A stretch of 37,683 nt of DNA, from positions 1-37,683 of IMG/VR virus record IMGVR_UViG_3300029717_000023; one strand, given 5' to 3'. How positions within the stretch are numbered: position 1 is the first letter of the stretch; each line of letters begins with the position of its first letter. The notes under the pieces are model-generated. The model was given only the letters and a program-made list of their open reading frames with translations. It did not search any database and was not told the origin of the DNA. The translations under genes were made by a program, and so were the position numbers. Source of the stretch: a virus. Positions 10,894 through 37,627 of this stretch are shown one piece after another.

Positions 10894-11342
10894 TTTGCCC
10901 TCATTGTAAAACAGATACGGCTTGCAGCTGGTGGCACCAGTGCCCGATGCATAACGACAAACCAGTTTGCAGGGACTGTCACAGTTCCTGCAAATATAAC
11001 GCAGATACGCATAACGGTCCCGGCTGTTCATATCGCAGGCACAACCCGAAAGTAGATCACCGGGAAGAATTGATCAAACTGGATAACCAGATCAGGGCCA
11101 AGGTCAAGAAGCAGCAGTTCTATTACCATAGAGGCTGGATGAAAGGTGGCCACGAGATAGGACTGGAAGTGGCAAGACTTAAACGTCTTAGAAAAGAAGT
11201 AGAAAGGGGCGACAACGATGAAACAAATCTTTATAGCAATAGTCTTAGCGGCAGTGCTGACAATACCGTTCGCACCGCCGCTGGAAGAACCGGAAATCTA
11301 CGCAGCAGAACAGACAGAAGCAATAGAGAAGCAGGAATTTGA
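10890..11342 (+). CDS. Cys-rich hypothetical protein; 3' end uncertain
   Basis: GTG start overlaps the upstream stop. Many Cys/His residues in the first 50 aa. The last ~41 codons overlap the SLT gene and look like out-of-frame read-through. Confidence 0.35.
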   Translation: MICPHCKTDTACSWWHQCPMHNDKPVCRDCHSSCKYNADTHNGPGCSYRRHNPKVDHREELIKLDNQIRAKVKKQQFYYHRGWMKGGHEIGLEVARLKRLRKEVERGDNDETNLYSNSLSGSADNTVRTAAGRTGNLRSRTDRSNREAGI

Positions 11343-11751
11343 GTCATGGGATATACCGCTGTCAGATGACCTGCAGCAGCACATTCACAGACTGTGTGAG
11401 AAATACGACATTAGCTACGCACTGGTCATAGCAATGATAGATGTTGAGAGCAACTTCAACAGCAAGGCGGTAAGCAGCACCAGTGACTACGGTCTGATGC
11501 AGATTAACGCCATAAATCACAAAGGCAATGTGGATTACCTGGATCCATACGACAATGTAGAGCACGGCATCAAGGCGCTGCACAAACTGGCAAAGAAGTA
11601 TAACGAAGCTGACCTGGTGCTTATGTGCTGGAACTGCGGAGAAGCCGGAGCAAGGAAGCTCTGGCAGGAAGGCATATACAGCACGGAGTACAGCCGAAAA
11701 GTCCTTGAGACGAAACTGGAATACGAAAGAAAGAATGAGGGCAATTATTGA
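11218..11751 (+). CDS. Secreted or membrane-anchored lytic transglycosylase (SLT domain)
   Basis: Signal/TM segment MKQIFIAIVLAAVLTIPF. Catalytic pattern IAMIDVESNFNSKAVSSTSDYGLMQIN. Confidence 0.8.
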   Translation: MKQIFIAIVLAAVLTIPFAPPLEEPEIYAAEQTEAIEKQEFESWDIPLSDDLQQHIHRLCEKYDISYALVIAMIDVESNFNSKAVSSTSDYGLMQINAINHKGNVDYLDPYDNVEHGIKALHKLAKKYNEADLVLMCWNCGEAGARKLWQEGIYSTEYSRKVLETKLEYERKNEGNY

Positions 11752-12421: not shown

Positions 12422-13897
12422 ATGGACAGACCATATAAGATAAAAAGACCTGCAAGAGTCGATAAGTTCATACTCGAAAAGGCAGACAAAGCATATCTGA
12501 TATTTGACAAAAAGAATGATTCTGTTTTCTGCACGATTAGAAATAAAATGATTAAATGCAGTGCAAAGCAATTCACTCACAATCGTCAGGAGCACTGTCA
12601 TAGGTGCAGCAAGGTTTGTATAAACGCGCTGCCCAAGGAAAGTAGATACGGCAGGAAAAGCCTTACGGAATGCGGGCGCATATTGTGGTTTACCAAAACC
12701 AAGAATGTCGTATACGCACAGTTGGACGAGTATATGATTGATTACTGCAATGAACAGCCCGAGATTGAATATAACCCCGTGCAGCAGTACAAGTTTTCGG
12801 GGAGTGAATGCGTCAGGTATGAAAAAGCATACCCTAACTACTTTGGAGGGAATGGACCTTGGCAGCAGCGCTCAAGCTTCAGATTGCCAAGGCCGGTGGG
12901 GATACCGTATTATTACACCGGATCGCCATTCGAAAAAACACTGCTTTACACGGGGAATATCAAAAAAATAAATGCCGGTCCATTAATCTATGCAGACACT
13001 TATGGCTTGGCAAAGCTGGTTGGCCTAAATCCATACAGTTACCTGCACATCCTGCATCAATGGTGTACCTACAGCTCAATAGAATTGCTGTACAAAGCAG
13101 GACTTACAAACATAGTGAAAGACAGAGCTGAGGAGAAAGGCTGCAGAGCTATAAACTGGCGGGCAAACTCCCTGCGCAGGATACTGAAATCCCCGCCTGC
13201 AGAAATCAAACAACTGCAGGCAGTAAACCCCACAATAGAAGGGTTTGAGTTGTACAAAAAAGCCAAAGGCATTTTTGACGGCATGCGACCGGAATTCATC
13301 CCGCTTATAGATGAATACAGAGCCATAGAGCGCATGGAAAAAATGTCGGAACAAATCAATATCCAAAAAGCTATGGAGTATATGTTCGAACAAGAAGTAA
13401 GAATTGGCGACTACGAAGACCATCTCAGGCTACTGGCCGAAACGGGTCAGCGCAGAAACAACAAGAATTTGTTTCCGGAAGATTTTGCCGCACAGCATGA
13501 ATTTTTGACACTTCTGTATGCAGACCGAAACAACCCAACTACGACAGAACTTATGAAAGCGGCCTTCAAAAAAGTAGAATACCTCAGTTATAGTTTTGAT
13601 GATTTGACTATATCGCCTGCAAAATCACCCTCAGACCTTGCAAAAGAGTCCAGCTATCTTCATCACTGTGTGAAAACGTACAGTGAAAGAGTTGCGGGTG
13701 GCAGGGCGTATATATTTTTCATAAGAAAAAAGGACAGGCCGGAAATGCCATACTATACACTCCAGCTCAGTCCGGACTTTAAGATTGTTCAATGCAGGGG
13801 TGATCACAACCGCGATATGACCGAAGAGGTGAAACAATTTGTGCAGAAATGGGCAGTCTTTGTAAACAAACAGACAAAAAAGAAAGGAGCAGCATAA
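12422..13897 (+). CDS. PcfJ-like protein
   Basis: C-terminal ESSYLHHCVKTYSERVAGGRAYIFFIRKKDRPEMPYYTLQL...IVQCRGDHN matches the remembered PcfJ domain signature. Confidence 0.6.
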   Translation: MDRPYKIKRPARVDKFILEKADKAYLIFDKKNDSVFCTIRNKMIKCSAKQFTHNRQEHCHRCSKVCINALPKESRYGRKSLTECGRILWFTKTKNVVYAQLDEYMIDYCNEQPEIEYNPVQQYKFSGSECVRYEKAYPNYFGGNGPWQQRSSFRLPRPVGIPYYYTGSPFEKTLLYTGNIKKINAGPLIYADTYGLAKLVGLNPYSYLHILHQWCTYSSIELLYKAGLTNIVKDRAEEKGCRAINWRANSLRRILKSPPAEIKQLQAVNPTIEGFELYKKAKGIFDGMRPEFIPLIDEYRAIERMEKMSEQINIQKAMEYMFEQEVRIGDYEDHLRLLAETGQRRNNKNLFPEDFAAQHEFLTLLYADRNNPTTTELMKAAFKKVEYLSYSFDDLTISPAKSPSDLAKESSYLHHCVKTYSERVAGGRAYIFFIRKKDRPEMPYYTLQLSPDFKIVQCRGDHNRDMTEEVKQFVQKWAVFVNKQTKKKGAA

Positions 13898-14848
13898 ATG
13901 AATGAAGTAGTAGATGTTGAATTCAAAGAAGTACAGGAAAGAACGTTGCCTGTAATAGCATCTGAAATAAAGACCATTGAGGAAGTTGTGTACAAGACAA
14001 CCCTTGAGGGTGTAATCCAAATAGGCAGGAGGTTGGAAGAGGCGAAAGGGAAGGTTGGCCACGGCAGCTTCTCGGACTGGTGCAAGGAATACCTGGGGTA
14101 CTCCCAGAGGCAGGCACAAAAATATATGGAAATATCATCGAAATACAGCGATGAAAACAGTCCTTTTTCAAATGCGAATATATCTTCGCATTTGAGTATT
14201 TCCAAGGCTTACAGCCTCTTGGCGCTTCCTGAGGAAGAAGTGGAAAACTTCACCGAAGAACACGACGTTGAGAGCCTGACTGTCAAACAGCTTGAGGAAG
14301 AAATAAGGAGTCTGAAAGAGGAAAAAACAAGGGAACTGGAACAAAAGGCAGAAGAAGTGCAGGAGCTCAAAAGCATAATGTTGCAGCTCGAGAACGAAAA
14401 AGCAAACATTCCAGACACTGAAGCACTGGAGGCAGAGCTCCGGCAGATGAGGGAAGCTCTGGAGCAGGCAGAAGCCGAAAAAGAAAAACTGGAGCAAAAG
14501 GTCGACAAATTCAAAGGCAAGATAGATAAGGCAGAAGAAGAAAAAGAAAAAGCGGTAAAAAAGGTAACTGACGAGAGAGACGATGCAATCAAGACTGCTG
14601 TCAACGAAGCAGTAGAAGAAACATACAAGGAAGCTCAGAGAGCTGCAGAGGAGGAAAAGGCGGAACTCAGAAAACAGTTAAACTCTGCAGACCCGGTACT
14701 GGTGAAATTCAAAGAACGTTTTGATGCCCTGCAGGTGTGCGTCGAAAACATCAAAGAAGCCATAGCGGAAAGCGGAGATGAACAGCAGAAGGAGAGCATG
14801 AAAAAAGCCCTAAAGACTGCGCTCTCCCAGATACAGGAGGCGATATAA
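13898..14848 (+). CDS. DUF3102-like protein with a long E/K-rich coiled coil
   Basis: N-terminus IQIGRRLEEAKGKVGHGSFSDWCKEYLGYSQRQAQKYMEI fits the DUF3102 pattern. The rest is an E/K coiled coil. Confidence 0.55.
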   Translation: MNEVVDVEFKEVQERTLPVIASEIKTIEEVVYKTTLEGVIQIGRRLEEAKGKVGHGSFSDWCKEYLGYSQRQAQKYMEISSKYSDENSPFSNANISSHLSISKAYSLLALPEEEVENFTEEHDVESLTVKQLEEEIRSLKEEKTRELEQKAEEVQELKSIMLQLENEKANIPDTEALEAELRQMREALEQAEAEKEKLEQKVDKFKGKIDKAEEEKEKAVKKVTDERDDAIKTAVNEAVEETYKEAQRAAEEEKAELRKQLNSADPVLVKFKERFDALQVCVENIKEAIAESGDEQQKESMKKALKTALSQIQEAI

Positions 14849-15231: not shown

Positions 15232-15635
15232 AGAACAATCCGGCAAACACAATCAAAGATACCATGTGGCACTTCCTGATAGATGAAGGGCAAAAGGCAA
15301 ACATCGAAGTACTAAAAGAAGCGGTCTATGACCTTATAGGGATGACGACCCAGAAAAACGCAGGACAGCGCAAGGCAAAAAAAGATATAGACTGGGATAA
15401 TCTAGACATGACTATGATGACAATTGTCATAGAGGCTACAGCTCTTGTTCTGTCAGGGGAATTGGATAAAAAGGAAGAAAAGAAAGCACCTAAGGACGTC
15501 ACAGTCCTCAATGACGCACTTTGCGAAAACTACAAAATAGGTCTTTGCGGAAGCTGCAAAGCTGTCGTTGACAATACAGAAAACTACTGCCGTAAATGCG
15601 GACAGGCAATTTTATGGGAGAGTATAGAAGAATGA
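15228..15635 (+). CDS. Hypothetical protein with a C-terminal zinc ribbon
   Basis: CGSCKAVV...YCRKCG. ATGA overlap. Confidence 0.4.
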   Translation: MKNNPANTIKDTMWHFLIDEGQKANIEVLKEAVYDLIGMTTQKNAGQRKAKKDIDWDNLDMTMMTIVIEATALVLSGELDKKEEKKAPKDVTVLNDALCENYKIGLCGSCKAVVDNTENYCRKCGQAILWESIEE

Positions 15636-15757
15636 ATAAAGAAACCAAGATTAGTATAATAGTTGGATGCATTGCGGCATCGGCTTTAGATAACGGAATA
15701 AAGGCAGAACTTATAGATTTTATGTGGGAGCTTGAAGAGGCAGGTGAGCAGGAATGA
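15632..15757 (+). CDS. Small hypothetical protein (41 aa) ending in junction-repeat copy 1
   Basis: ATGA overlaps at both ends. C-terminus ...EEAGEQE is encoded by the repeat. Confidence 0.3.
   Translation: MNKETKISIIVGCIAASALDNGIKAELIDFMWELEEAGEQE
15738..15757 (+). repeat. Gene-junction repeat copy 1 (AGGCAGGTGAGCAGGAATGA)
   Basis: 20-nt unit containing SD AGGTGA, a 6-nt spacer and an overlapping ATG/TGA. The next gene starts at 15754. Confidence 0.85.
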
Positions 15758-15996
15758 AAACAATTAGAAAAAAGATTTTGCCAATATATTTTGAAGCTGT
15801 GGAAAGCAGACAGAAAAATTTTGAAATCAGAAAAGACGATGATGATGTGCAGGTGGGCGATAAGTTAGTTTTAGTAGAATGGAACGAAGAACAGCAACAC
15901 TACACTGGAAGATTCGCCACAAGAAAAGTGAAGTATGTTTTGCGTAATGTGCCTGAATATGGGTTGAATGAAGGCTATTGCATTATTGGTTGGTAA
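15754..15996 (+). CDS. DUF3850-like ASCH/PUA-fold protein
   Basis: KILPIYFEAVESRQKNFEIRKDDDDVQVGDKLVLVEW....TGR.....VKYVL fits the remembered DUF3850 pattern. Confidence 0.55.
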   Translation: MKTIRKKILPIYFEAVESRQKNFEIRKDDDDVQVGDKLVLVEWNEEQQHYTGRFATRKVKYVLRNVPEYGLNEGYCIIGW

Positions 15997-16016
15997 AGGC
16001 AGGTGAGCAGGAATGA
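15997..16016 (+). repeat. Gene-junction repeat copy 2
   Basis: Exact copy of AGGCAGGTGAGCAGGAATGA. The next gene starts at 16013. Confidence 0.85.
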
Positions 16017-16375
16017 ATCGTAAAACCATTAAAAAAGCCGAACGAGAAAGAGTTTATCTAAAATACAACGGACACTGTGTTTACTGTGGCAAGGAGATTG
16101 CGTACAAGGATATGCAGGTAGACCACCTGATGCCATTAGAGGGGTACTGCGAAAAAGGCACGAATGATTTTGACAACTTAATGCCTGCTTGCAGGCGATG
16201 CAATCACTATAAGCGGGCGAATAGTTTAGAGGGCTGGCGAAAGATGATTGAGCAAATACCTGAGAAATTGGAGCGGGACAGCTATATTTACAGAGTGGCA
16301 TTAGATTATGGGATAATCAATCCAAATCCACATAAAATTAAATTTTATTTTGAAAAGGTAAGTGAGCAGGAATGA
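16013..16375 (+). CDS. HNH endonuclease
   Basis: CVYCGKEI...VDHLMPLE...NDFDNLMPACRRCNHYK. Confidence 0.8.
   Translation: MNRKTIKKAERERVYLKYNGHCVYCGKEIAYKDMQVDHLMPLEGYCEKGTNDFDNLMPACRRCNHYKRANSLEGWRKMIEQIPEKLERDSYIYRVALDYGIINPNPHKIKFYFEKVSEQE
16356..16375 (+). repeat. Gene-junction repeat copy 3 (2 mismatches)
   Basis: AGGTAAGTGAGCAGGAATGA. The next gene starts at 16372. Confidence 0.8.
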
Positions 16376-16848
16376 AAATTTTAGATGCCTGTTGCGGAAG
16401 TAGAATGTTTTGGTTTGACAAGAACAATCCCTTGGTGACCTTTATGGATAATCGGGAGATTGAAGATGCTTTGTGTGACGGCCGAAGCCTGAGAGTAAAA
16501 CCTGATGTCTTGGGAGATTTCAGAAGAATTCCGTATGACAGCGGAACATTTGACATTGTAGTCTTTGATCCGCCACATTTGCTAAAAGTCGGAGAAAAAT
16601 CGTGGCTTGCTAAAAAGTATGGCAAGCTTAATCAGTCAACATGGAAAGACGATTTAAAGCAGGGCTTTTCAGAGTGCTTCAGAGTTTTAAAGCTGAATGG
16701 AATACTGGTGTTTAAATGGAATGAGACTGATATTCCCGTTTCTGAGATTTTAAAACTTACTGAACAAAGCCCATTAATAGGACACAAAAGTGGAAAACTT
16801 AATAAGACACATTGGATATTGTTTTTTAAGGCAGGTGAGCAGGAATGA
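16372..16848 (+). CDS. SAM-dependent methyltransferase, probably a DNA methyltransferase
   Basis: Motif I-like ILDACCGS and motif IV-like VVFDPPHL. Small phage-type enzyme. The target base is unknown. Confidence 0.6.
   Translation: MKILDACCGSRMFWFDKNNPLVTFMDNREIEDALCDGRSLRVKPDVLGDFRRIPYDSGTFDIVVFDPPHLLKVGEKSWLAKKYGKLNQSTWKDDLKQGFSECFRVLKLNGILVFKWNETDIPVSEILKLTEQSPLIGHKSGKLNKTHWILFFKAGEQE
16829..16848 (+). repeat. Gene-junction repeat copy 4
   Basis: Exact copy. It starts a 23-codon ORF at 16845-16916. Confidence 0.85.
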
Positions 16849-16973
16849 ATTATAACGACTATGCAAAGCTGAGAGAGCGCGCAATAAGAAAGGTGGGCAA
16901 TCAGAATGTTCTATAACGAAGCTATGACACTAATAGGACGAAGCTATAAACCTATGGAACAGGAGAGCGGGTA

Positions 16974-17147
16974 ATGAAGATGAACAAGAAAGAAGCAATG
17001 GACAAGCTGTACGAGCATAAAAATATGCTTACGTATCAGCAGTACAGGACATTCAGAGGTCAGATATGCTCAGGAGATATAGTAGGATTTCACAAGGGTT
17101 TAGATAGGATATTGAAAAGAAAAGGAGAAGTAAAATGTCAGAGATAA
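16974..17147 (+). CDS. Small hypothetical protein (57 aa)
   Basis: ATG 7 nt after AGGAGA. Overlaps the DGR target 2 start by 13 nt. Below the track cut-off. Confidence 0.3.
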   Translation: MKMNKKEAMDKLYEHKNMLTYQQYRTFRGQICSGDIVGFHKGLDRILKRKGEVKCQR

Positions 17148-17962
17148 AGATAGGAACAATCAATATTATTTTTAACGGCAATATGAATAGCGCGCAGGAA
17201 ATGATACCGGCAGCGGAGCGTTGTGAGAACAGCCCAGCTAAAGCGCCGGTGAAAATTGTAACATGGGCAGACGGAACAGACGAAGAAATAGTTGCAATGG
17301 TTAAGGCAGCAGACAAGGGACTGATCGATTTGAAAGATTACTGGAATATTGGAGATGCAAGAAAGGTTATGCTGTCTGAGACAGAAGGCTGCGAATGGTA
17401 TACGTCCCACAGCAGACAGGAGACTGAATTCGTATTGATGAACGCTGGCGGGAAGATGTTGCTAACACCTACCGAGTCAGGCAGGACAACCTGTAGCTTT
17501 GTGGTTGGGTTGAAAGATTGTCTCAAAGAAGAGGACAAAATCAACAGAGAAGATACAAATGAAGGCGGCTGGGAAAGTTCAGATATAAGGGAATGGTGCA
17601 ATGACTGGTTTGCACAGTCAATTCCCCAGACCCTGCAGCCGATATTCAAAAACTTTGTAAACAGTACATATGCAGACGGGAAGATTGTTGAAACGACAGA
17701 CCTGTTTGCGCTTCCGGCAGAGGTTGAGGTGTACGGAAGCACCAAATACTCTGCACAGGGAGAAGGCACACAATTTGAGCTTTATAAAAATCCGCTTAAC
17801 AGAATTAAGTGTATAGGCTCCGGAGGATATCAGGCCCACTGGTGGGAGCGTTCTCCTTGTTCGAGCAGTTCGGCTGGTTTCTGCATAGTCGACTCGGACG
17901 GCGACGCCGACGTCAGCAGCGCGTCGGTCACTTTTGGACTGGCCCCTTTCGGCTGTATCTAA
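17135..17962 (+). CDS. DGR target protein 2 (C-type-lectin-like variable domain only, 275 aa)
   Basis: Paralogous to residues ~185-421 of target 1 (KIVTWA.GTD.EI..MV.AADKGLI.L.DYW..GD...). C-terminus carries VR2 (HWWERSP...GLAPFGCI*). SD AAGGAG. Confidence 0.85.
   Translation: MSEIKIGTINIIFNGNMNSAQEMIPAAERCENSPAKAPVKIVTWADGTDEEIVAMVKAADKGLIDLKDYWNIGDARKVMLSETEGCEWYTSHSRQETEFVLMNAGGKMLLTPTESGRTTCSFVVGLKDCLKEEDKINREDTNEGGWESSDIREWCNDWFAQSIPQTLQPIFKNFVNSTYADGKIVETTDLFALPAEVEVYGSTKYSAQGEGTQFELYKNPLNRIKCIGSGGYQAHWWERSPCSSSSAGFCIVDSDGDADVSSASVTFGLAPFGCI
17833..17960 (+). repeat. DGR variable repeat 2 (VR2)
   Basis: 128 nt align gap-free to TR 548-675. All 22 mismatches are at TR adenines. Confidence 0.95.
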
Positions 17963-17973
17963 TATCAATTAAT

Positions 17974-17991
17974 CAGCAGCGAATGCTGCAG
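17974..17991 (+). promoter_or_regulatory. VR2-proximal hairpin (GAAT loop), DGR target-recognition element candidate
   Basis: gcagc-gaat-gctgc core, plus an outer c-g pair across an a/a mismatch. Begins 13 nt after VR2, the same offset as at VR1. Confidence 0.6.
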
Positions 17992-18005
17992 GAAGGAATT
18001 AAGAA

Positions 18006-18266
18006 ATGGAAAAATTAAAAGTAGGATCATCAACGAAACCCAACCTGGCTGCAGGAGCGATTGCAGGAATCATAAGAAGAGATAAAAAAATAGAGATTCA
18101 GGCTATAGGAGCGGGAGCAGTTAATCAGTCAATTAAGGCGGTAGCTATAGCAAGAGGCTATGTAGCTGCCGGTGGACTGGATATAATCTGCAGACCTGCA
18201 TTTATAGATATCGACACGGGCGATAAGGAAACCACAGCTATAAGAATAATAGTCGAGGCAATTTGA
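18006..18266 (+). CDS. spoVS: SpoVS-like protein (stage V sporulation protein S homologue)
   Basis: MEKLKVGSSTKPNLAAGAIAGIIR....EIQAIGAGAVNQSIKAVAIARGYVA..G.D.IC.PAF.DI......TAIR.IVE closely follows the SpoVS sequence as I recall it. Confidence 0.8.
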   Translation: MEKLKVGSSTKPNLAAGAIAGIIRRDKKIEIQAIGAGAVNQSIKAVAIARGYVAAGGLDIICRPAFIDIDTGDKETTAIRIIVEAI

Positions 18267-18499
18267 TGATCATCGGGACAAGCGAAGATGGCGCAGTACG
18301 CCAGTGCGAACATTGCCAAACCGTATACAAAGGAAACCATTGCCCGCATTGTGCACTTGTGGCGATGAACAGGTATAAGCGGCCAAAAAGAACGAAGAAA
18401 AAGAAAACATACGCGCAGAAGCAAATAAAAAGCACCTTGGAGCTTTCCGAAGAGCAGGAAAAGTTCTTGAAAACACAAGAAAAATGCAACAATAAATAA
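18266..18499 (+). CDS. Zinc-ribbon protein with a basic tail
   Basis: CEHCQTVYKGNHCPHC, then a K/R-rich segment. TGATG overlap with the spoVS-like stop. Confidence 0.4.
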   Translation: MIIGTSEDGAVRQCEHCQTVYKGNHCPHCALVAMNRYKRPKRTKKKKTYAQKQIKSTLELSEEQEKFLKTQEKCNNK

Positions 18500-18562
18500 C
18501 CATTAAGCAAGCCTGGGACAAGCAGTAAAAAGCAGCCCCAGGCATAACCAACGGAGGAGAAA

Positions 18563-18772
18563 ATGGAATTTAAAGTAACAGAGCACATCGCAGTGCTTGG
18601 CGACAGATCGAAGGGGTGGCAGGCAGAGCTCAATAAAATAAGCTGGAACGGCAACCCGGAAAAGTATGATATTAGAGTATGGTCTGAAGGACACGAAAAG
18701 ATGACTAAAGGCATAACCCTATCAACTGAAGAGGTCAAAGCGTTATACCAAGCACTTGGAGAAGTATTATAG
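18563..18772 (+). CDS. YdbC/PC4-like ssDNA-binding protein
   Basis: KGWQAELNKISWNGNPEKYDIRVWSEGHEKMTKGITLSTEE matches the remembered YdbC family pattern. SD GGAGGAG. Confidence 0.6.
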   Translation: MEFKVTEHIAVLGDRSKGWQAELNKISWNGNPEKYDIRVWSEGHEKMTKGITLSTEEVKALYQALGEVL

Positions 18773-18868
18773 CGACAAAACAAAAGCTACTATATAAGGT
18801 AAGAAGATGAGCTCGTATATAGAGCATATGAGCTTGATTAGAGTATTAATAATAGAACAGGTGAGAAT

Positions 18869-19714
18869 ATGAAAGTTGTAAGAGAAACGTGCGTGGCAGG
18901 AAAAGTGATTGACGTAACCATCAAGGTTCCATCAGGGAATCATTCAGGAAAGCGTGCCGCTAAAACCCGCGTCACTTCGGAAAAGGTAGAAAAAAACAAT
19001 GAGAGGATTGCTGAGAAGGAACTGGCAAGACTCTTTAATGCTAATTTCACATCGAAAGACGCTCACGTTGTTCTCACCTACAAGGAGAAACCTACGCAGA
19101 AGCAGGCAGCCGCAGCACTTAAAAAAATCTTGCGAAAACTGCGCAGCGAATTCAAGAAGCAAGGCAAAACCTTAAAGTATATTGCGGTGACCGAGTACAT
19201 AGGAAAAAGAATACATCACCATATTGTTATTAATACACAGGATACAACAATGCTGGTAAGGTTATGGGAAGAAGGCTATGTCAACATGAAGGCTCTTGAT
19301 GAGAGCGGCGACTACACCAAACTCGCAAAGTACTTCATCAAGGAAAGCAGACACACTTTCAGATACGAAGAAAGTCAGCACAAAAGGAGATACAGTTGCA
19401 GTCGAAACCTTACAAGACCCGTAGTCAAAAGGGAAATGGTCAGTGAAAAACAACTTTGGGAAGACCCGAAGCCAATCCAAGGATACTACATACCAAGGGA
19501 CTCTGTGAGAAGATATGAGCATCCCATAACAGAGCTTGAACATCTTGAATACCGAATGATTGCAATAGACGAACCAAGAGCATATGGCGTATGGCCTAGG
19601 GGAAAGAAAGTCAGCGGAAAAGAGAATTTTAAAGTTAACTACAGAGAAGAACAGGAAGCCTTTATGACGGATGACATACAGGCTATCTTGAAGTGCGGAA
19701 AGGAGAGCGAATGA
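18869..19714 (+). CDS. HUH-type (rolling-circle Rep-like) endonuclease candidate
   Basis: Three ordered motifs: AHVVLTYKE (motif I uuTu), RIHHHIVINT (HxH plus hydrophobics), DYTKLAKYFIKES (Y..K). Confidence 0.4.
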   Translation: MKVVRETCVAGKVIDVTIKVPSGNHSGKRAAKTRVTSEKVEKNNERIAEKELARLFNANFTSKDAHVVLTYKEKPTQKQAAAALKKILRKLRSEFKKQGKTLKYIAVTEYIGKRIHHHIVINTQDTTMLVRLWEEGYVNMKALDESGDYTKLAKYFIKESRHTFRYEESQHKRRYSCSRNLTRPVVKREMVSEKQLWEDPKPIQGYYIPRDSVRRYEHPITELEHLEYRMIAIDEPRAYGVWPRGKKVSGKENFKVNYREEQEAFMTDDIQAILKCGKESE

Positions 19715-20139
19715 CAAAACAAAAGCTCAAGAGCTACTACTGGCTGCAGCACGAAATTAGGCAGCAGAGAGGAAGACTTTACAGGCTAAGAAAAAAGCAG
19801 GAACTGTCTGGTGAGATTGTGGGTGACATTGTAAATGACTACAAGACCGGTAACGCTATCCCATTGATGATACAAGGCATAGCCGACGAAGATTTTAAGC
19901 TGCCGATGATGATTCACCTGTTGGAAGCTGAAATAGAGCAAAATATCATTGAGGCTCAGGAGAGAGTGAAGGAGATCGAAGAATTCGTGCAGACGGTAGA
20001 AGATCCGCGTATGAGAGAACTGCTCCGCAGTAGATTTATAGATTGCAAACGCTGGGAAGATGTAGCGGCCAGTAACTACATAAGCACAGCTCATGCGAGG
20101 AAGCTCATTAGAGAATATCTGCAGAACTTGCCGCAATAG
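19711..20139 (+). CDS. Late-gene activator candidate (RinA/ArpU/sigma region-4-like)
   Basis: ATGA overlap. The pattern YYWLQHEIRQQRGRLYRL...C-terminal HTH-like WEDVAASNYISTAHARKLI and its position just upstream of the packaging genes. Confidence 0.45.
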   Translation: MTKQKLKSYYWLQHEIRQQRGRLYRLRKKQELSGEIVGDIVNDYKTGNAIPLMIQGIADEDFKLPMMIHLLEAEIEQNIIEAQERVKEIEEFVQTVEDPRMRELLRSRFIDCKRWEDVAASNYISTAHARKLIREYLQNLPQ

Positions 20140-20223
20140 CTAAACTTAATCACTTATAATCACTTTTTCTGTGGTATAGTTATATTGTCATAGAGACTAA
20201 ATGAACAAGGATATACAGAAAGG

Positions 20224-20245
20224 CACTGCTTCGGCGGTGTTTTTC
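20224..20245 (+). terminator. Rho-independent terminator
   Basis: cactgc-ttcg-gcggtg (one G-U pair), followed by TTTTT. Confidence 0.5.
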
Positions 20246-20256
20246 TTATTGGAAAA

Positions 20257-20580
20257 ATGGCAAAAGACTTTTCGAAGAAATTCTACAACTCAAAAGAATG
20301 GCAAGCAGCGAGAGCCGCATACATAGCAGAACGCATAGGCATTGACGGCGGACTGTGTGAACGATGTCACAAGGAGCTCGGCAAGATAGTTCACCACAAG
20401 GTGATACTCAATGCTATAAACATTAACGATGCTGACATAACGCTCAACAAGTGCAGGCTTGAGTACCTGTGCAAAGACTGTCACGACGAGGAACACTACA
20501 AGGATATGTTTGGCAGGGAGCGGAAACCGTCAAGATGCTTTTTCGACAAGCGCGGCAATCCTGTTATAAAAAACGAATAG
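20257..20580 (+). CDS. Packaging-associated HNH endonuclease
   Basis: CERCHKE...VHHKV...N....LCKDCHDEEH. Located immediately upstream of terS/terL. Confidence 0.8.
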   Translation: MAKDFSKKFYNSKEWQAARAAYIAERIGIDGGLCERCHKELGKIVHHKVILNAININDADITLNKCRLEYLCKDCHDEEHYKDMFGRERKPSRCFFDKRGNPVIKNE

Positions 20581-20680
20581 CCCCCCTATCTGACGAACAG
20601 GGGCTCCGGGGCGAAGACCGCATGCCTCAGAATACTTTTGACGGGTGATACGCACGCAGGAAAGGGGGTCATAAAATAAA

Positions 20681-21040
20681 ATGGGAAATAGAAAAGAGAA
20701 AACAAAAGAAGAGCGCATTTTAGCAGAGGAGCGAAAACTTAAAAGAATTTTTAAGATTTTGGAGAAAGATAAGCTTACGATTGCAGCAAAGCTGTGTAAA
20801 AAAGCTGCGTTTATGGATGTGACCCTCGATGATATGCAGGTCCAGATTACAGCGGAGGGCTTCACCAAGAAGGCTGTAAACGGAAACGGATTCACAGTGG
20901 AAATGGACCACCCGGCGCTGAAGAGTTACAACACGATGATTAAAAATTACAACACCGTCATGAAACAGCTCATAGACCTTCTTCCGGAAGACACTGAAGA
21001 GGTTGACGAGCTGCTTCTTCACATCAGAGGTAAGCAATGA
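20681..21040 (+). CDS. terS: Terminase small subunit (P27-family-like)
   Basis: 119 aa. Its position and the pattern ...AAFMDVTLDDMQVQI...HPALKSYNTMIKNYNTVMKQL support the call. Confidence 0.65.
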   Translation: MGNRKEKTKEERILAEERKLKRIFKILEKDKLTIAAKLCKKAAFMDVTLDDMQVQITAEGFTKKAVNGNGFTVEMDHPALKSYNTMIKNYNTVMKQLIDLLPEDTEEVDELLLHIRGKQ

Positions 21041-22695
21041 CATACCTTGAGGAATACTTCACAGCGCTGCTTGACGGCAAGATTATGGCCTGCGAAAAAA
21101 TGAAACTTGTATCGGAAAAAATCCTGCAGGATCTGTACAAACCGGGAGAGTATCACTTCGATGAGGAAATCGCAAACAAACATATAGAATTCATAGAAAA
21201 GTTTTGCAAGACTCCTTCCGGAAGACTGGGCACACCATTGAAACTGCAGCTTTTTCAGAAGGCAAGGCTGCAGGCAGTGTTCGGCTTTGTAGATGACAAT
21301 GACCTGCGAAAATACAACGAAGTCTTGGTTGTCGAGGGACGTAAAAATGGTAAGACAACGGAATGCGCTGCAACGGAACTGGATATGCTCGTAAATGATG
21401 GCGAGGGAGCGCCTCAGATATATAACGTGGCAACCCAAAGAGAGCAGGCCACACTTGGCTTTAACGCTTGTCACAAGATGAGAAACCAGTCGCCTCTACT
21501 CAGAAAGCACATACGAAAAAGAGCCGCAGATTTATACTGCAGCCTGAACTTCGGCTATATCAAAGCCCTTGCGAGCAACACAACGGCTCTTGATGGCCTC
21601 GATGTTCATATGGCAACCATAGATGAATTGTCGGCAATCAAAAATAGAGATTTATATGATTTAGTGAAGCAGGGAATGGGCGCAAGAAGCCAGCCTCTGC
21701 TTTTTTGCATATCGACAAACGGTTTCGTCAGGAATGGGATATTCGATGCCCAGTATCAGTATGCATCAGACATTCTGCATGGCAAAGCTGTAAATGATAG
21801 ATTTCTGCCGCTCATATACGAGCTCGACGATGCCGATGAATGGGACAAAGAAGAATGCTGGGTTAAAGCAAACCCGGGCATAGACACAATCAAATCACGA
21901 GATTACCTTAGGCAGATGGTTCAGAAGGCGAAAGATGATATATCGTTCAAGCCTACCGTAATGGTTAAAGATTTCAATATTCCACAGAACAGAGCATCAT
22001 CGTGGCTTAAGTGGGAGGAGATTGCCAATGACTATAAAACGCCTGCTGATGCGAAGTTCAGATATTGCATTGGCGGAATGGACGCTGCAGACTCCATAGA
22101 CCTTAATGCGGCCAAGATACTGTGCATGAGACCGGGAGATGAACATATCTACCTGAAATCTATGTACTGGATCCCGCAGGAAGCCATAGACAGATTCGAG
22201 GATTCGGGCAAGAGACAGGGACGAGACAATGTGCCATATAAGCTCTGGAAAGACCAGGGTTATCTCAGAACAGTACCGGGCAACAAGGTGGATAAGGAAG
22301 TGTTTTTAGACTGGTTTTGTGAAGTCAGAGATGAAGAGGATATATATGTGCTGTACATCGGCTACGACCCTTGGCACATAGATGAAAGCTTGCTTCGGAA
22401 ATTCAGAAATGAATTCGGGCAGGAAAGTATGATACCTATAAGACAGGGCGTAAAAACTCTGAGCAATCCGATGAAAGACATGAGAGCCGACATGGGCAAA
22501 CACCTTATAGTCCATGACGGCAATCCTATTGATATATGGAATCTTGCCAATATGGAAGTCACCGTCGACATCAACGGGAATATCCAGCCGGTTAAAGGGC
22601 TGGATCAGCGCAATAGGATTGACGGTGGCATGGCACTAATTGATGGATATGTCGTTTTAAAAAATAAATATGACGAATATCAAAGTGTAATTTAA
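21037..22695 (+). CDS. terL: Terminase large subunit
   Basis: 552 aa. Walker-A-like VVEGRKNGKTT; MATIDEL (Walker B-like); C-terminal nuclease region. ATGA overlap with terS. Confidence 0.9.
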   Translation: MTYLEEYFTALLDGKIMACEKMKLVSEKILQDLYKPGEYHFDEEIANKHIEFIEKFCKTPSGRLGTPLKLQLFQKARLQAVFGFVDDNDLRKYNEVLVVEGRKNGKTTECAATELDMLVNDGEGAPQIYNVATQREQATLGFNACHKMRNQSPLLRKHIRKRAADLYCSLNFGYIKALASNTTALDGLDVHMATIDELSAIKNRDLYDLVKQGMGARSQPLLFCISTNGFVRNGIFDAQYQYASDILHGKAVNDRFLPLIYELDDADEWDKEECWVKANPGIDTIKSRDYLRQMVQKAKDDISFKPTVMVKDFNIPQNRASSWLKWEEIANDYKTPADAKFRYCIGGMDAADSIDLNAAKILCMRPGDEHIYLKSMYWIPQEAIDRFEDSGKRQGRDNVPYKLWKDQGYLRTVPGNKVDKEVFLDWFCEVRDEEDIYVLYIGYDPWHIDESLLRKFRNEFGQESMIPIRQGVKTLSNPMKDMRADMGKHLIVHDGNPIDIWNLANMEVTVDINGNIQPVKGLDQRNRIDGGMALIDGYVVLKNKYDEYQSVI

Positions 22696-22710
22696 GAAAG
22701 GAGGTAAAGC

Positions 22711-23889
22711 TTGGGACTATTCCAAAGATTGAAAAATGCGAGAAAGTCAGACAGATTCAAGATGGTGACAACGACAGGCAATTCGTACTACGCATGGGAC
22801 GGCAAACTGTACAACTCGGACATCATCCGAGCGTGCATTAAACCGCAGACCAAGGCGATAGGTAAAGCTGTAGCAAAGCATATAAGAAAGACCATTGATG
22901 AAGAGGGTAACAGAAAGATTGAAGTCAATCCGCAGCCGTATATGAGACTGCTTCTGGAAGATCCTAACCCATATATGACCGGTCAGATGCTTCAGGAAAA
23001 AATGTGTAATCAGCTCATCTTGTCGGGAAATGCCTTTATTCTGATAATCAGAGATGAAAACGGTTATCCGGTGGAACTATATCCGATTCCCTGCACCAAC
23101 GTTGAAACGAAGTATACTGACACAGGCAGGTTGTGGCTCAGGTTCTGGTATCAGAACGGCAAGTATGGAGATTTTCCGTATGAAGACGTGATCCACATCA
23201 GAGATGACTACAAGACGAATGACATATTCGGCGAAGCTCCGATGATTGCCCTAGAACCGCTGATGAAGTGCGTGACAACTATAGACCAGGGCATTATAAA
23301 AGCAATAAAGAACTCGGGAGCCGTTAGGTGGCTGCTGAAATTCAGCAATGCGTTAAGACCGGAAGACCTGAAAGAAAAGACAGCAGAATTTGCACAGAAC
23401 TATTTAGACATTGAGTCTGAAACTTTCGGAGTTGCCGGAACTGATGCCAAGGCAGAGGCGCAGAGAATTGAGGCGAAGGACTATGTTCCGAACGCAGCGC
23501 TCATAGACCGTATAACCAAGAGAATTTATGCATTCTTCGGAGTCAACGAGGCAATCGTACATTCTGAGTTCACAGAGGAAGAATGGAACGCATTTTATGA
23601 GGCAAGGTGTGAACCGGTCATAACTCAGATGTCTAGAGAATTTACAAAAAAGCTGTTCAGCCGCAAGCAGAGAGCTTTCGGAAATGAGATTGTGTTTGAA
23701 GCGTCAAATCTGATGTTCGCAAACACAAAGACAAAGCTTGAATTCGTGGCGATGGTTGACAGGGGCGCAATGACACCTAATGAATGGCGTTATCTGTTCA
23801 ATATGACACCGGTTGAGGGTGGCGATACACCTATAATGAGACTGGATACTGCAAAGATAGGAGGTGATGAAGGAAATGGAAACGGTTAA
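22711..23889 (+). CDS. Portal protein (HK97-family-like)
   Basis: TTG start after AAGGAGG. 392 aa. Sequence pattern and position after terL. Confidence 0.85.
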   Translation: MGLFQRLKNARKSDRFKMVTTTGNSYYAWDGKLYNSDIIRACIKPQTKAIGKAVAKHIRKTIDEEGNRKIEVNPQPYMRLLLEDPNPYMTGQMLQEKMCNQLILSGNAFILIIRDENGYPVELYPIPCTNVETKYTDTGRLWLRFWYQNGKYGDFPYEDVIHIRDDYKTNDIFGEAPMIALEPLMKCVTTIDQGIIKAIKNSGAVRWLLKFSNALRPEDLKEKTAEFAQNYLDIESETFGVAGTDAKAEAQRIEAKDYVPNAALIDRITKRIYAFFGVNEAIVHSEFTEEEWNAFYEARCEPVITQMSREFTKKLFSRKQRAFGNEIVFEASNLMFANTKTKLEFVAMVDRGAMTPNEWRYLFNMTPVEGGDTPIMRLDTAKIGGDEGNGNG

Positions 23890-24583
23890 AGTTACAGGCC
23901 CCATTGTTCCAAACAGCAGCAAGTGGATTTACGACTGGCTCGAGATAGAGGCGACAGCTCCTCAGGATTTGGAAAAAGCTTTCGAAAAAGCCGGGGGCGA
24001 AGATGTTACAATCTGGATTAATTCCGGAGGCGGTGATGTGGGTGCCGGTAATGAAATGGCATACATTATAGGCAGCTACAAAGGGAAGACAATAGCGGAC
24101 ATTGCCGGATACTGCTGCAGCGCTGCAACGCTTGTATCGTGTGCGGCTGATAAAGCTAGAATGATGCCCAGTGCGCTGTATATGATTCATAATGTCTCAT
24201 CATATGCGGAAGGCGATCATCAGGTATTCGGGCACGAGGCAAATGTTCTCAAGGCTGCCAGCGAAGCCATTGCGGAAGCCTACCACAGAAAAACAGGCAA
24301 GAGCATAAAGGAACTGGCAAAGCTTATGGACAATGAAACATGGCTGAATGCAAGGCAGGCAAAAGAAGAAGGTTTTATAGATGAGATCATAGAAAACAAA
24401 AATAACATGTCGCTCATTAATGGCATAGAGCCGATGCTGAGCGAGGAAACGATTGAAAAAATAAGGAGTCAGATTAAGCTTACCGTAATCCCTACAGAGG
24501 ATAAGGAGGCTTTTTTAAATGCAAAAAAGCAGGCCAAGGCAAAACTTGAACTGCTGAAAATGAAAGGAGAAATGAATGTTTAA
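23867..24583 (+). CDS. ClpP-like head maturation protease
   Basis: WINSGGGDVGAGNEMAYII...AGYCCSAATLVSCAADKARMMPSALYMIHN (Ser/His of the S14 family). Start ambiguous: GTG 23864, ATG 23867 or ATG 23876. Confidence 0.85.
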   Translation: MKEMETVKVTGPIVPNSSKWIYDWLEIEATAPQDLEKAFEKAGGEDVTIWINSGGGDVGAGNEMAYIIGSYKGKTIADIAGYCCSAATLVSCAADKARMMPSALYMIHNVSSYAEGDHQVFGHEANVLKAASEAIAEAYHRKTGKSIKELAKLMDNETWLNARQAKEEGFIDEIIENKNNMSLINGIEPMLSEETIEKIRSQIKLTVIPTEDKEAFLNAKKQAKAKLELLKMKGEMNV

Positions 24584-25793
24584 GAACAAAAAAGAGTATT
24601 TGGAGCTAAGAGCAGGACTTATAGCAGAGGCGCAGAGCCTTATTGACGAAGGCAAACTTGAAGAGGGCACAGCTAAAATGGACGAAGTAAAAGAACTCGA
24701 CAACAAATATGAATCATACGCAGAAATGCAGGCTAATCTCAATGCGCTTAACAATCTTCCGGCAGGCGGCGTGTTATCTGCGGCAATGGGCGCAGGGAAC
24801 CCGGAAAGACTTGTTCCGGAACTGACCGACGATATGTACGATACTGTTGAGTACAGAAGAGCATTTATGAACAATGTTGTAGGAGGCGAACCGATTCCTG
24901 CAAAATTCACAAATGCGGACGCAAACACAAAGACAACAGATGTAGGCTCAGTAATTCCGACAACCATCATGAACAGGATAGTTGAGAAGCTTGAGTCTGT
25001 GGGCAAAATCTACAACAAAGTAACAAAGACCTTCTATAAGGGTGGGTTAAGCATTCCGACATCTTCGGCAAAACCTACAGCTACATGGGTGGCAGAAGGC
25101 GCAGGATCGGATAAACAGAAGAAGCCTACAGGCTCAATAACGTTCGCATACTACAAGCTCAGATGCGCAATTTCAATGTCACTTGAAACTACAGTTGTAA
25201 CTCTTGACATCTTCGAAACAACTTTCGTAAACAATGTCGTTGAGGCGATGATTAAGGCAATCGAAAAATCAATATTCACAGGAACCGGTTCAACCGGCAA
25301 GCAGCCGACAGGCTTCCTTACAGAAACAGTAGTTACAGGCCAGAATATTGATATTGCTAAAACAGCAGCAATCAAATATGCGGATCTGTGCAAAATGGAA
25401 GCGGCACTGCCTGAGGAGTATGAGGTAGATGCAGAATGGTTTATGAGAAAGTCTACCTTCTTCAACCAGATTGTAGGAATGGTGGATACAGACGGTCAGC
25501 CTATAGCAAGAGTCAATTACGGACTTGCAGGCAAGCCTGAATATATGCTTTTCGGAAGGCCTGTAAACTTCACAAACCATATGGAAGCTTATGCCGACAC
25601 AGTTTCTGCTGACACAATCGTTGCCTGCATATTCAATCTTAAAGACTACCTGCTCAACATCAACCTTAATATGACGGTTAAGCAGTATGAGGATAACGAA
25701 ACAGACGATCAGGTAACAAAGGCAATTATGCTTGTGGATGGCAAGACTGTAGATAAGAACAGCCTTGTGACAATGACCAAGAAATCAGCCTAG
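24576..25793 (+). CDS. Major capsid protein, HK97 fold, with an N-terminal scaffold-like delta domain
   Basis: 405 aa. Coiled-coil N-terminus followed by the capsid core. SD AAAGGAGA. Confidence 0.9.
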   Translation: MFKNKKEYLELRAGLIAEAQSLIDEGKLEEGTAKMDEVKELDNKYESYAEMQANLNALNNLPAGGVLSAAMGAGNPERLVPELTDDMYDTVEYRRAFMNNVVGGEPIPAKFTNADANTKTTDVGSVIPTTIMNRIVEKLESVGKIYNKVTKTFYKGGLSIPTSSAKPTATWVAEGAGSDKQKKPTGSITFAYYKLRCAISMSLETTVVTLDIFETTFVNNVVEAMIKAIEKSIFTGTGSTGKQPTGFLTETVVTGQNIDIAKTAAIKYADLCKMEAALPEEYEVDAEWFMRKSTFFNQIVGMVDTDGQPIARVNYGLAGKPEYMLFGRPVNFTNHMEAYADTVSADTIVACIFNLKDYLLNINLNMTVKQYEDNETDDQVTKAIMLVDGKTVDKNSLVTMTKKSA

Positions 25794-25803
25794 GAGGTAA
25801 ATA

Positions 25804-26124
25804 ATGCTCACCCAGAAAATGAAAGACGAACTGCTTGAATATATCAAGGCAGACAGCGATGATGAAGAAGCGGAAGGGCTGTTTGAGGCAGCTGTGCGAC
25901 TGGCCGAAACTCAGACCGGCAAAGAATTCATAATTGAAGAGGACCAGCCAAAAGACCAGTTGTACTGGATGGCTATAAAACAGCTTGTCTGTCACTGGTA
26001 TGATAACCGCGGAGCGATAGACGAAAAAGCGGTGAACAAAATCCCGTATAATGCGGAAATGATTTTAAATCACATAAGCCTTTGCAGTCAGTTCCCGAAG
26101 AAAAGCGAGGAGGCCGGAATATGA
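25804..26124 (+). CDS. Head-tail connector (gp6/QLRG-like)
   Basis: Size, position and N-terminal pattern ...LLEYIKADSDDEEAEGLFEAAVRLAE. Confidence 0.6.
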   Translation: MLTQKMKDELLEYIKADSDDEEAEGLFEAAVRLAETQTGKEFIIEEDQPKDQLYWMAIKQLVCHWYDNRGAIDEKAVNKIPYNAEMILNHISLCSQFPKKSEEAGI

Positions 26125-26465
26125 ACATAGGTGAGCTTGACGAGAAGATATATATCTATGGTAATACAAAATCAAAGAACAGATTAGGCGAGACAGAGGT
26201 AAAGCCCATACTGATAAAAACGGTATGGGCTAAAGTTGTATCCAGGACAGGCTCACTTCTCGCAGGAAGGCCGGCAGATACAATGCTGTCAAAGACCACC
26301 CATGCAGTCACAGTGAGAGCTAAATCCATAGAGGGCATAACCTATGAGAACTGGATTGAATGGACCGACATCACGGGTGTAAAGCACAGATTTGACATAG
26401 ACTATATCATGCCGCCTGTACGAACCAGCCCGACCACGACCATATATGCTCAGGAGGTGATCTGA
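26121..26465 (+). CDS. Head closure / head-tail adaptor protein
   Basis: ATG 26121 after GAGGAGG (the track ORF starts at 26082). Pattern IGELDEKIYIY...VWAKV... is typical of the SPP1 gp16-like family. Confidence 0.6.
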   Translation: MNIGELDEKIYIYGNTKSKNRLGETEVKPILIKTVWAKVVSRTGSLLAGRPADTMLSKTTHAVTVRAKSIEGITYENWIEWTDITGVKHRFDIDYIMPPVRTSPTTTIYAQEVI

Positions 26466-26863
26466 TGAAGGAAGGCTTGACGGATATCGCAAGAAACATT
26501 GTAAGAACCGGTGTGATGTTCCCCAAGGAAACAAAAAAATTCATGAAAGAGCACGCCAGAGAGCTTGCCAAGGAAACAAAGGCCAAAGCAAGAGGAACGG
26601 TTCGCAAGAGGACGGGAAACCTGCTTAAAGGCATCAAAGCCGGCAAGATTGTGTATGAATTTGATGACACGTTGAACGTCAGAGTCATATACGGATCTCC
26701 TGCAAGGCATGGTCACCTTATCGAATACGGGCACAAAACAAGAACCGGCTTCGTCAGAGCGTATAACATAATGCGTGACACGCTGCAGGCATATGAGAAC
26801 AAATGGGCAAGGGCTGTTGAAGATGACCTGTGCGATTTCATAGTAAAGGAGCTTGAACGATGA
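26465..26863 (+). CDS. HK97 gp10-family tail-completion protein
   Basis: RTGNLLKGI....ARHGHLIEYGHK pattern. Confidence 0.6.
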   Translation: MKEGLTDIARNIVRTGVMFPKETKKFMKEHARELAKETKAKARGTVRKRTGNLLKGIKAGKIVYEFDDTLNVRVIYGSPARHGHLIEYGHKTRTGFVRAYNIMRDTLQAYENKWARAVEDDLCDFIVKELER

Positions 26864-27279
26864 AAACAGTAGCAGATTTGATTACAGCAGTAACTGCAAA
26901 GCTGACGGAAAAATTTCCGGACATAGATATCAGATCTACAGACCTTGATAAACACCCTGAGAAATGTTTCTATACAGAGTATACAGTAAATCGTGACGGC
27001 ACACCCGACTTCGTGCACGATTCGGGCAGAATAACTCTGTTTTACTTTCCTGAGAATAAAAAAGTGAACAGGGTGGAGCTTGTTGACATGCAGGCAAAGC
27101 TTTCGCAGGTGTTTGTTTACAGTCTTGCTCTGGATGACAACTTTGCGGTACCGGTTGTAAATCTGGACTTCACACTAGAAGACGACGTGCTTGTAATGGA
27201 GTTTGATTTTGAAATGCATCAATTCGTTGACAACGACAAAGATGCTGCCGAGATGGAATATATCGAAGTGCAGGAATAG
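26860..27279 (+). CDS. Structural protein, tail terminator/completion by position
   Basis: ORF between the gp10-like and sheath genes. ATGA overlap. Confidence 0.35.
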   Translation: MKTVADLITAVTAKLTEKFPDIDIRSTDLDKHPEKCFYTEYTVNRDGTPDFVHDSGRITLFYFPENKKVNRVELVDMQAKLSQVFVYSLALDDNFAVPVVNLDFTLEDDVLVMEFDFEMHQFVDNDKDAAEMEYIEVQE

Positions 27280-27288
27280 GAGGTAAGA

Positions 27289-28332: not shown

Positions 28333-28342
28333 GAGGTAATCA

Positions 28343-28786: not shown

Positions 28787-28797
28787 GAGGGAAACGC

Positions 28798-30978: not shown

Positions 30979-30987
30979 GAGGCAGAT

Positions 30988-32372: not shown

Positions 32373-32375
32373 GAT

Positions 32376-32654: not shown

Positions 32655-32658
32655 TAGT

Positions 32659-34668: not shown

Positions 34669-34675
34669 TGATTGC

Positions 34676-36060: not shown

Positions 36061-36070
36061 GAGGTAAGAA

Positions 36071-36274: not shown

Positions 36275-36289
36275 TGATAGGAGAATAAA

Positions 36290-37616: not shown

Positions 37617-37627
37617 TATCGCATAAT

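Follow-up and report, generated by a model that had tools for sequence, protein, structure and literature searches.

We describe a distant second target of a diversity-generating retroelement (DGR) in the DNA of a temperate gut phage, the IMG/VR virus record IMGVR_UViG_3300029717_000023 (37,683 nt; this whole stretch is called the window). The gene, Target 2 (T2), is located at 17135–17962, and the evidence given below makes it very probable that T2 is a functional, currently active and non-adjacent target of the single DGR of this phage. Self-comparison of the window showed that positions 1–99 are exactly the same as positions 37585–37683; with ends identical over 99 nt, the phage genome is a circle of 37,584 bp. 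A repeat of ~128 nt is present three times in the window: as a template repeat (TR) at 548–675, as a variable repeat (VR) at 37487–37614 in the other target gene, Target 1 (T1), and as a second variable repeat at 17833–17960, which forms the 3′ end of the T2 open reading frame (ORF). The two variable repeats are designated VR1 and VR2. The features involved are the following.

17135–17962, + strand: T2, an ORF for a 275-aa DUF6273 / C-type-lectin-like protein (Pfam DUF6273, E 2.7e-12)
17833–17960, + strand: VR2, aligned to TR 548–675; the mutagenised part is ~17837–17934
36351–37616, + strand: T1, 421 aa, with a Big_3 Ig-like and a DUF6273 domain; VR1 is at its 3′ end
76–516, + strand: Avd-like accessory gene (146 aa), between T1 and TR, assigned by position and size alone
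548–675, + strand: TR, rich in adenine and with AAY codons when read in the VR frame; situated between the Avd-like and reverse transcriptase genes
714–1925, + strand: DGR reverse transcriptase (RT; RVT_1, E 8e-14), directly downstream of TR

Rewriting of a repeat 17 kb from its template

VR2 has 22 mismatches to TR, and all 22 fall at TR adenines, as had been counted in a first-pass annotation of this DNA. Given that TR contains 37 adenines in 128 nt, the hypergeometric probability of such a distribution is 3e-15. Two of the changes, at TR 668 and 670, are common to VR1 and VR2 and are situated within the element for initiation of mutagenic homing (IMH); therefore, ~20 of the 22 mismatches are true mutagenesis sites. 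VR1 differs from TR at 19 positions, again exclusively adenines (19/19), and is itself hypervariable among orthologues of T1. Thirteen A sites were changed in both variable repeats, nine in VR2 only and six in VR1 only. These unlike sets agree with the earlier view that VR2 was diversified independently of VR1. Gene conversion from VR1, considered as a source of VR2 variation, was ruled out by the same nine VR2-only and six VR1-only sites. Along the circle, the distance between TR and VR2 is 17,285 bp in one direction and 20,299 bp in the other (~17 and ~20 kb in the first-pass annotation).

An RT and a TR of DGR type are thus found on the same replicon as T2. The RT is intact, and its translation carries the motifs expected of DGR RTs, LGSEISQ (of the I/LGxxxSQ type) and YNDD. 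The longest ORF here, at 531–1925, is an artefact in which the in-frame TR is fused to RT; this fusion produces a spurious DUF6273 match at the N terminus of the ‘RT’, and the real start is probably the ATG at 714.

Evidence that VR2 is being rewritten comes mainly from populations of related phages. A protein search yielded 57 full-length clusters of T2 orthologues at 79–90% identity. In their alignment just 14 columns are hypervariable (2.4–3.5 bits versus a mean of 0.23 elsewhere), and they coincide exactly with TR codons AAY and AAA. In 22 pairs of orthologues whose 232-aa backbones are identical the VR differs at 9–13 of the 14 sites, and for T2 orthologues at large the correlation between backbone distance and VR distance is r = −0.09. 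The 45 further members of three 90% clusters have 45 distinct VR2 strings; one 90% cluster holds 15 VRs on four backbones. Altogether, ~100 T2 orthologues carry nearly as many distinct VR2 sequences. According to the first-pass annotation, a VR2 that stayed invariant while VR1 varied would be a relic; among the orthologues VR2 is not invariant.

The same picture is seen in genomes that share a cassette. The TR is 100% identical in contigs L004 and L005, and the RT is 100% identical in two IMG/VR contigs. Two IMG/VR genomes with both TR and RT 100% identical to those of the window have a VR2 with 17–18 different substitutions, at A only. An identical TR is paired with an unlike VR2 in three genomes, with all differences at A.

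Some variable repeats have one extra in-frame codon inside the CGCC(AAC)4 tract. It was seen in VR1 of L004:9180-9332 and L005:9180-9332, in VR2 of L019:10692-10844 and in T2 orthologues P0004, P0006, P0034 and P0054. The cognate TR of L004 and L005, 100% identical to the window TR, is without this codon, which points to slippage on this AAC tract, either in cDNA synthesis or in homing. Length changes are thus part of DGR variation here, beside A substitutions.

Divergence, homing signals and selection

Residues 39–275 of T2 align with residues 184–421 of T1 at 56% identity over 240 aa (E 3e-90), and the Big_3 Ig-like domain is found in T1 only. T2 had been described earlier as a 275-aa paralogue of the T1 C-terminal domain lacking the Ig-like N-terminal part, and both statements stand. 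Upstream of the VR, the DNA of T1 and T2 is 59% identical, and third positions of conserved residues are identical in 48% of cases. The latter value means that synonymous sites are saturated and that T2 is an old paralogue of the T1 C-terminal domain. Inside the VR, DNA identity rises to 82%, all 29 of 29 third positions are the same and every non-A position is identical. Repeated copying of one TR into two old paralogues would produce just this contrast between VR and backbone.

The VR is followed in both targets by similar elements:

17936–17966, + strand: IMH-like element GGACTGGCCCCTTTCGGCTGTATCTAATATC, 31 nt, identical at VR1 and VR2
17974–17991, + strand: GC-rich hairpin 3′ of VR2, with stem GCAGC/GCTGC and loop GAAT
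37628–37645: VR1 hairpin, downstream of T1, with a 7-bp stem (−9.6 kcal/mol) and a GAAT loop

The IMH-like element differs from the TR copy (IMH*) at TR 668 and 670 and from 676 onward, and it is invariant across all VR1 and VR2 copies of the relatives. The 5-bp stem of the VR2 hairpin (−5.8 kcal/mol, z −2.4 in the DNA fold) is flanked by an A.A mismatch and then a C-G pair; the hairpin is kept in L001, L002, L003, L009 and L011. DNA folding found no hairpin after TR. VR2 thus shows both the IMH/IMH* difference and the VR-only GC hairpin of a DGR target. In Bordetella phage BPP-1 the IMH/IMH* asymmetry sets the direction of DGR homing, and by analogy with this phage we infer that IMH and hairpin function at VR2.

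The first-pass annotation argued for ongoing homing rather than recent duplication. This argument is upheld by the saturated synonymous sites together with the identical non-A positions of the VR, and it gains further support from equal backbones that carry unlike VR2 and from genomes with identical TR and RT and unlike VR2. One part of its reasoning does not hold: near-identity had been taken as a sign of homing for VR, IMH and hairpin alike, and this is valid for the non-A positions of the VR only. TR possesses neither the IMH nor the hairpin; hence their identity at VR1 and VR2 cannot stem from homing, and their near-identity at two sites indicates selection on cis function.

The proposed course of events is as follows. 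The RT, probably with the Avd-like protein, would copy TR RNA with misincorporation opposite adenines, and the cDNA would replace VR2 as well as VR1. VR2 would be marked as a recipient by its own IMH and the downstream GC hairpin, which TR does not have. The outcome would be a randomised patch of 14 residues on the C-terminal face of the DUF6273 (C-type-lectin-like) domain. The biochemistry of RT and Avd in this scheme is presumed to be that of BPP-1.

Outside the VR, the T2 backbone has a ratio of non-synonymous to synonymous substitution rates (dN/dS) of 0.10–0.29 at dS 0.15–0.64; thus, purifying selection acts on the scaffold. Of 102 full-length orthologue sequences (57 + 45), 101 have an intact gene, and only P0133 is frameshifted. 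Residue usage at AAY-derived sites differs by site (χ2 537, 168 degrees of freedom, P 3e-40): Arg is common at 242 and 248, Asp is common at 259 and 265, and Tyr is dominant at 267. Overall, VR codons encode Tyr in 23% of cases; Asn, Gly and Ser are also frequent, whereas Pro, Cys and Ala are scarce. Since a uniform mutational bias cannot give differences between sites, the variants appear to be filtered by function.

Several points weigh against T2 being an active target. Database clustering may remove near-identical variants and bias pairwise VR distances upward, and VR2 diversification in this very genome is deduced from population data. The Avd-like ORF stands at the canonical place of an Avd gene and had no Pfam, NCBIfam or PADLOC match in family searches; its pairwise similarity to the Avd of Roseburia phage Shimadzu is weak (E 0.004). 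The VR2 hairpin is also shorter and weaker than the VR1 hairpin.

Genomic neighbourhood and known two-target systems

The genes closest to T2 are the following.

16013–16375, + strand: HNH endonuclease, upstream of T2
16372–16848, + strand: orphan/type II DNA methyltransferase, upstream of T2
16974–17147, + strand: conserved ORF of 57 aa, starting MKMNKKEAMDKLYEHKNMLTYQQYRTFRGQICSGDIVGFHKGLDRILKRKGEV, which overlaps the T2 start by 13 nt
18006–18266, + strand: SpoVS homologue (Pfam SpoVS, E 2.4e-32), directly downstream of T2

The SpoVS gene is followed by a 78-aa ORF, a PC4-like DNA-binding protein, a Rep_ORF2/G2P replication initiator and an ArpU-like regulator, and then by genes for HNH, TerS, TerL, portal, protease and capsid. 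Annotation is thus in line with the earlier description of the neighbours as a methyltransferase cassette and a SpoVS homologue upstream of the packaging genes. The 57-aa ORF is immediately upstream of T2 in 8 of 8 loci and overlaps the T2 start codon in seven of them (in L002 it ends just before the start). Family searches gave nothing significant for either the 57-aa or the 78-aa ORF. Judged by this arrangement, the product of the 57-aa ORF may be a translationally coupled partner of T2.

The block of 57-aa ORF, T2, SpoVS and Rep is kept in 8 of 8 loci examined. The slot upstream of T2 varies: in the window it is occupied by HNH and methyltransferase genes, in L001 and L020 by a Lar-like restriction-alleviation gene, and elsewhere by small ORFs. 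Upstream of the 57-aa ORF, at ~16935–16973, the window has a 3′ remnant of the Lar-like gene (~27 codons). L001 and L020 have this gene complete, whereas in the window the cassette of HNH and orphan methyltransferase has taken the place of its 5′ part. A remnant beside a swapped-in cassette indicates a hot spot of accessory genes directly upstream of T2.

On a larger scale, the block T1–Avd–TR–RT–lysis–lysogeny–early(T2) is combined with two unrelated myovirus-like head–tail modules. The first type, with a 552-aa TerL and an HK97-type capsid, is present in the window, L009 and L019; the second, with a GpA-type terminase and Phage_portal_2, is present in L001–L003 and L020. From the T1 gene to the early region the block is 85–100% identical at the protein level (window versus L001–L004 and L020; the swapped region is 20200–36300). 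This is a clear case of modular exchange. The place of T2 is fixed in every relative examined, even beside an unrelated head–tail module, so that T2 is not a recent rearrangement out of a tail module. The first-pass annotation had considered that in relatives T2 might be syntenic with tail genes; instead, T2 precedes SpoVS in 8 of 8 loci.

Judging by gene order, T2 would be expressed early. In a promoter and terminator scan of 15600–20700, promoter-like sites were fewer than in shuffled sequence and no terminator was found on the + strand; the scan thus gives no evidence of an autonomous T2 transcription unit. Between 11218 and 14848 the early region encodes SLT-domain (11218–11751), PcfJ-like (12422–13897) and DUF3102 (13898–14848) proteins. 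Members of these families are generally met on conjugative elements more often than in phages.

A SpoVS homologue on a phage suggests that the host is a spore-forming Firmicute and, possibly, that the phage manipulates its development. Two scans of genome contigs for the host gave only a distant match to a Bacilli metagenome-assembled genome, and an exact look-up of the integrase found only excised or circular phage contigs without host flank. Taking SpoVS together with the Roseburia and Faecalibacterium relatives, we loosely place the phage in a spore-forming gut Firmicute.

A megablast search of 15700–19800 against GenBank phages gave no match, and tblastn of T2 against phages gave only three distant matches, Shimadzu among them. 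By these searches, the lineage is absent from deposited phage genomes. The prototype DGR phage, BPP-1, has a single cassette-adjacent target, Mtd, which is a proven tail-fibre receptor-binding protein. The window phage resembles BPP-1 in adenine mutagenesis between TR and VR, in IMH versus IMH*, in the GC hairpin 3′ of VR, and in the location of the VR at the C terminus of a binding domain of C-type-lectin fold (for T2 a putative fold, assigned via the DUF6273 literature). It differs in that T2 is 17 kb away from the cassette and outside the tail module.

The first-pass annotation implied that a remote second target was novel. This is not the case: a two-target arrangement with the distal VR near DNA methyltransferases is already published in related gut phages, with the same layout in Shimadzu, Toutatisvirus and other gut prophages. 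In Shimadzu, sequencing shows that both VRs are rewritten (Cornuault et al., bioRxiv 10.1101/575076). Shimadzu, which infects a gut Clostridia host, resembles the window phage in being temperate and myovirus-like and in the adjacency of tail-fibre target, Avd, TR and RT. Its TR is at 19582–19710, VR1 is in the tail-fibre gene orf22, and VR2 (33466–33594) is in orf43, 13.9 kb from TR. The orf43 product is likewise a small DUF6273 protein (209 aa), encoded immediately downstream of a DNA methyltransferase within the replication region; orf43 and T2 both belong to PHROG 21980 and are 34% identical over 138 aa. On the other hand, orf43 is a neighbour of Erf/SSB, whereas T2 neighbours SpoVS, a PC4-like protein and Rep; no coupled 57-aa ORF exists at orf43; the two targets are 33% identical in Shimadzu (orf43–orf22) versus 56% here (T2–T1); and the two genomes are otherwise unrelated at the DNA level.

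In Toutatisvirus, a second DUF6273 target ~17.5 kb from TR is core to the genus (bioRxiv 10.1101/2024.10.15.618418). FP_Toutatis has one DGR with two DUF6273 targets, of which the small one, gp24 (215 aa), belongs to the early region, with two DNA methyltransferases before it and the replication initiator after it. Variation among cognate genomes is seen in the two VRs alike. The differences are that gp24 has no detectable pairwise similarity to T2, that its VR is not at the extreme C terminus, and that the adjacent target is Hoc-like and situated downstream of RT. T2 and Shimadzu orf43 might represent a single orthologous lineage of early targets, but T2 resembles its own T1 (56%) far more than orf43 (34%), and Toutatis gp24 can be aligned to neither T2 nor orf43. 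In the FP_Toutatis locus L021, three GC-rich repeats of ~78 nt (19886–22176) are located between minus-strand genes of the primase region and are unrelated to the DGR.

Phages Lelie and CP11 likewise possess a large and a small DUF6273 target (PMC11792537), and in four gut prophage species DNA methyltransferases are found near a second, distal VR (Nature 2025, PMC12629997). For many phage-associated DGRs, Wu et al. 2018 (PMC5758913) listed an adjacent target plus a non-adjacent one within the prophage. The latter two studies differ from ours in dealing mostly with Bacteroidota phages and in having no target-protein analysis. Large metagenome surveys look only beside the RT (Roux et al. 2021); non-adjacent DGR targets are therefore missed, and their biology is poorly sampled.

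In this light, our finding is a further example with better population evidence rather than a new principle. What it adds is strong population evidence of VR2 activity and selection, the conserved partner ORF of 57 aa, the connection with an exchangeable anti-restriction slot and persistence across two virion backgrounds. The lineage offers clean and plentiful natural data, with ~100 VR2 haplotypes, a TR identical across genomes and two virion backgrounds, and shows that a small lectin-like protein whose gene stands amid those for replication and anti-restriction is retained under selection while being rewritten continually. Recurrence in Shimadzu and Toutatis-like phages suggests a conserved function; if that function is non-structural, it would widen the view of what phage DGRs serve.

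The Target 2 protein and its possible roles

The T2 protein consists of an invariant peptide (residues 1–13), a variable disordered linker (~14–38) and a globular domain (39–275). The AlphaFold2 model (predicted local distance difference test score, pLDDT, 87.5; predicted template modelling score, pTM, 0.82) is confident for residues 36–275 and has residues 1–35 disordered. Structural matches in BFVD are phage DUF6273 and tail-fibre proteins (best E 9e-16). Foldseek detected the DUF6273 N-terminal domain of a gut IgA peptidase (PDB 9qa6, E 2.8e-3), and canonical C-type lectins match weakly (E > 1); DUF6273 is assigned to the C-type-lectin fold in the literature (PMC10743442). A PDB sequence search with the family profile gave nothing meaningful. 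T2 is without a signal peptide. Beyond DUF6273, it had no match in Pfam, NCBIfam or PADLOC and none to a known defence or anti-defence family. When the N-terminal 40 residues were compared with 1.8 billion representatives, only T2 fragments matched; the N-terminal peptide is thus not a shared docking module.

With somewhat less than even confidence, we take T2 for a ligand-binding accessory adhesin or receptor-binding protein that would act extracellularly, either on the virion or after release at lysis. This guess follows from three observations: T1 and the short tail-end proteins of other phages are tipped by the domain of T2, the protein has an anchor–linker–head layout, and it has no signal peptide. 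Two such homologues, P0107 and P0117 (~52% identity), are encoded at the end of tail modules just before holin/lysin genes; these tail-end proteins have 265–279 aa and a short N-terminal extension and come from phages without a nearby DGR. Homology to tail tips is accordingly found on three counts: 56% identity to the T1 C terminus, ~52% to the tail-end proteins and the tail-fibre matches in BFVD.

Other observations speak against a virion role. T2 is located in the replication/anti-restriction region and not in a tail module in 8 of 8 loci, and the ArpU-like late regulator comes five genes after it. Relatives with unrelated head–tail modules have the same N-terminal peptide, for which no relatives were found outside T2 orthologues. 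During in vivo evolution of Shimadzu in mice, VR1 alleles were selected, while VR2 alleles diversified and were not selected (bioRxiv 10.1101/575076).

These same observations could be accommodated if T2 were an early-expressed, intracellular hypervariable binder outside the virion, engaged in counter-defence or host takeover and tracking variable host proteins, which we consider unlikely. The conserved early-gene position beside a swappable anti-restriction slot (orphan methyltransferase, HNH or Lar) agrees with such a role, as do the DNA methyltransferase neighbours in Shimadzu and Toutatis and the methyltransferase link in the four gut prophages, for which an arms-race role was proposed by the authors (PMC12629997). 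The absence of a signal peptide, an N-terminal peptide independent of the virion module and the lack of selection for infectivity on Shimadzu VR2 would fit as well. However, T2 has no homology to any known defence or anti-defence family, so that genomic association with the methyltransferase/Lar slot is the sole anti-defence support, and the closest relatives of the domain are tail-tip proteins. A paratope rich in Tyr, Ser, Gly and Asn would equally fit binding of a surface glycan or a protein, and gene order alone does not establish timing and location. The recurrence beside anti-restriction genes in at least three unrelated Clostridia phage lineages raises a possible distinct functional class. 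It is a speculative idea, to which we give a rather low chance, that small early-operon DUF6273 DGR targets are a distinct class of non-virion hypervariable binders with an ‘antibody-like’ part in counter-defence. Members of such a class would not be second receptor-binding proteins; their site of action would be the interior of an infected or lysogenic cell, or the cell surface once lysis has occurred, e.g. in neutralising variable host defence or surface proteins.

It is improbable that VR2 is a bystander which receives cDNA by virtue of its IMH and hairpin, with variation of no adaptive value in a dispensable protein. Each Shimadzu isolate had a different VR2 allele and none was dominant, and the shorter hairpin at VR2 of the window could be read in the same way; but a dispensable protein would fit poorly with a backbone under purifying selection, with a gene intact in 101 of 102 orthologue sequences and kept across two virion-module backgrounds, with IMH and hairpin conserved between paralogues whose synonymous sites are saturated, and with strongly site-specific residue preferences at VR codons. 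The notion of VR2 as a relic without activity, or as the product of a recently duplicated T1 3′ end in which rewriting has ended, can practically be dismissed: the exact T2 protein of the window does occur on six contigs from several assemblies, so VR2 can be stable in the short term, but divergence outside the VR is saturated (59% for DNA, 48% at third positions), VR2 variation is unrelated to backbone distance, unlike VR2 accompany an identical TR in three genomes, and each of the 45 further cluster members has a VR2 string of its own.

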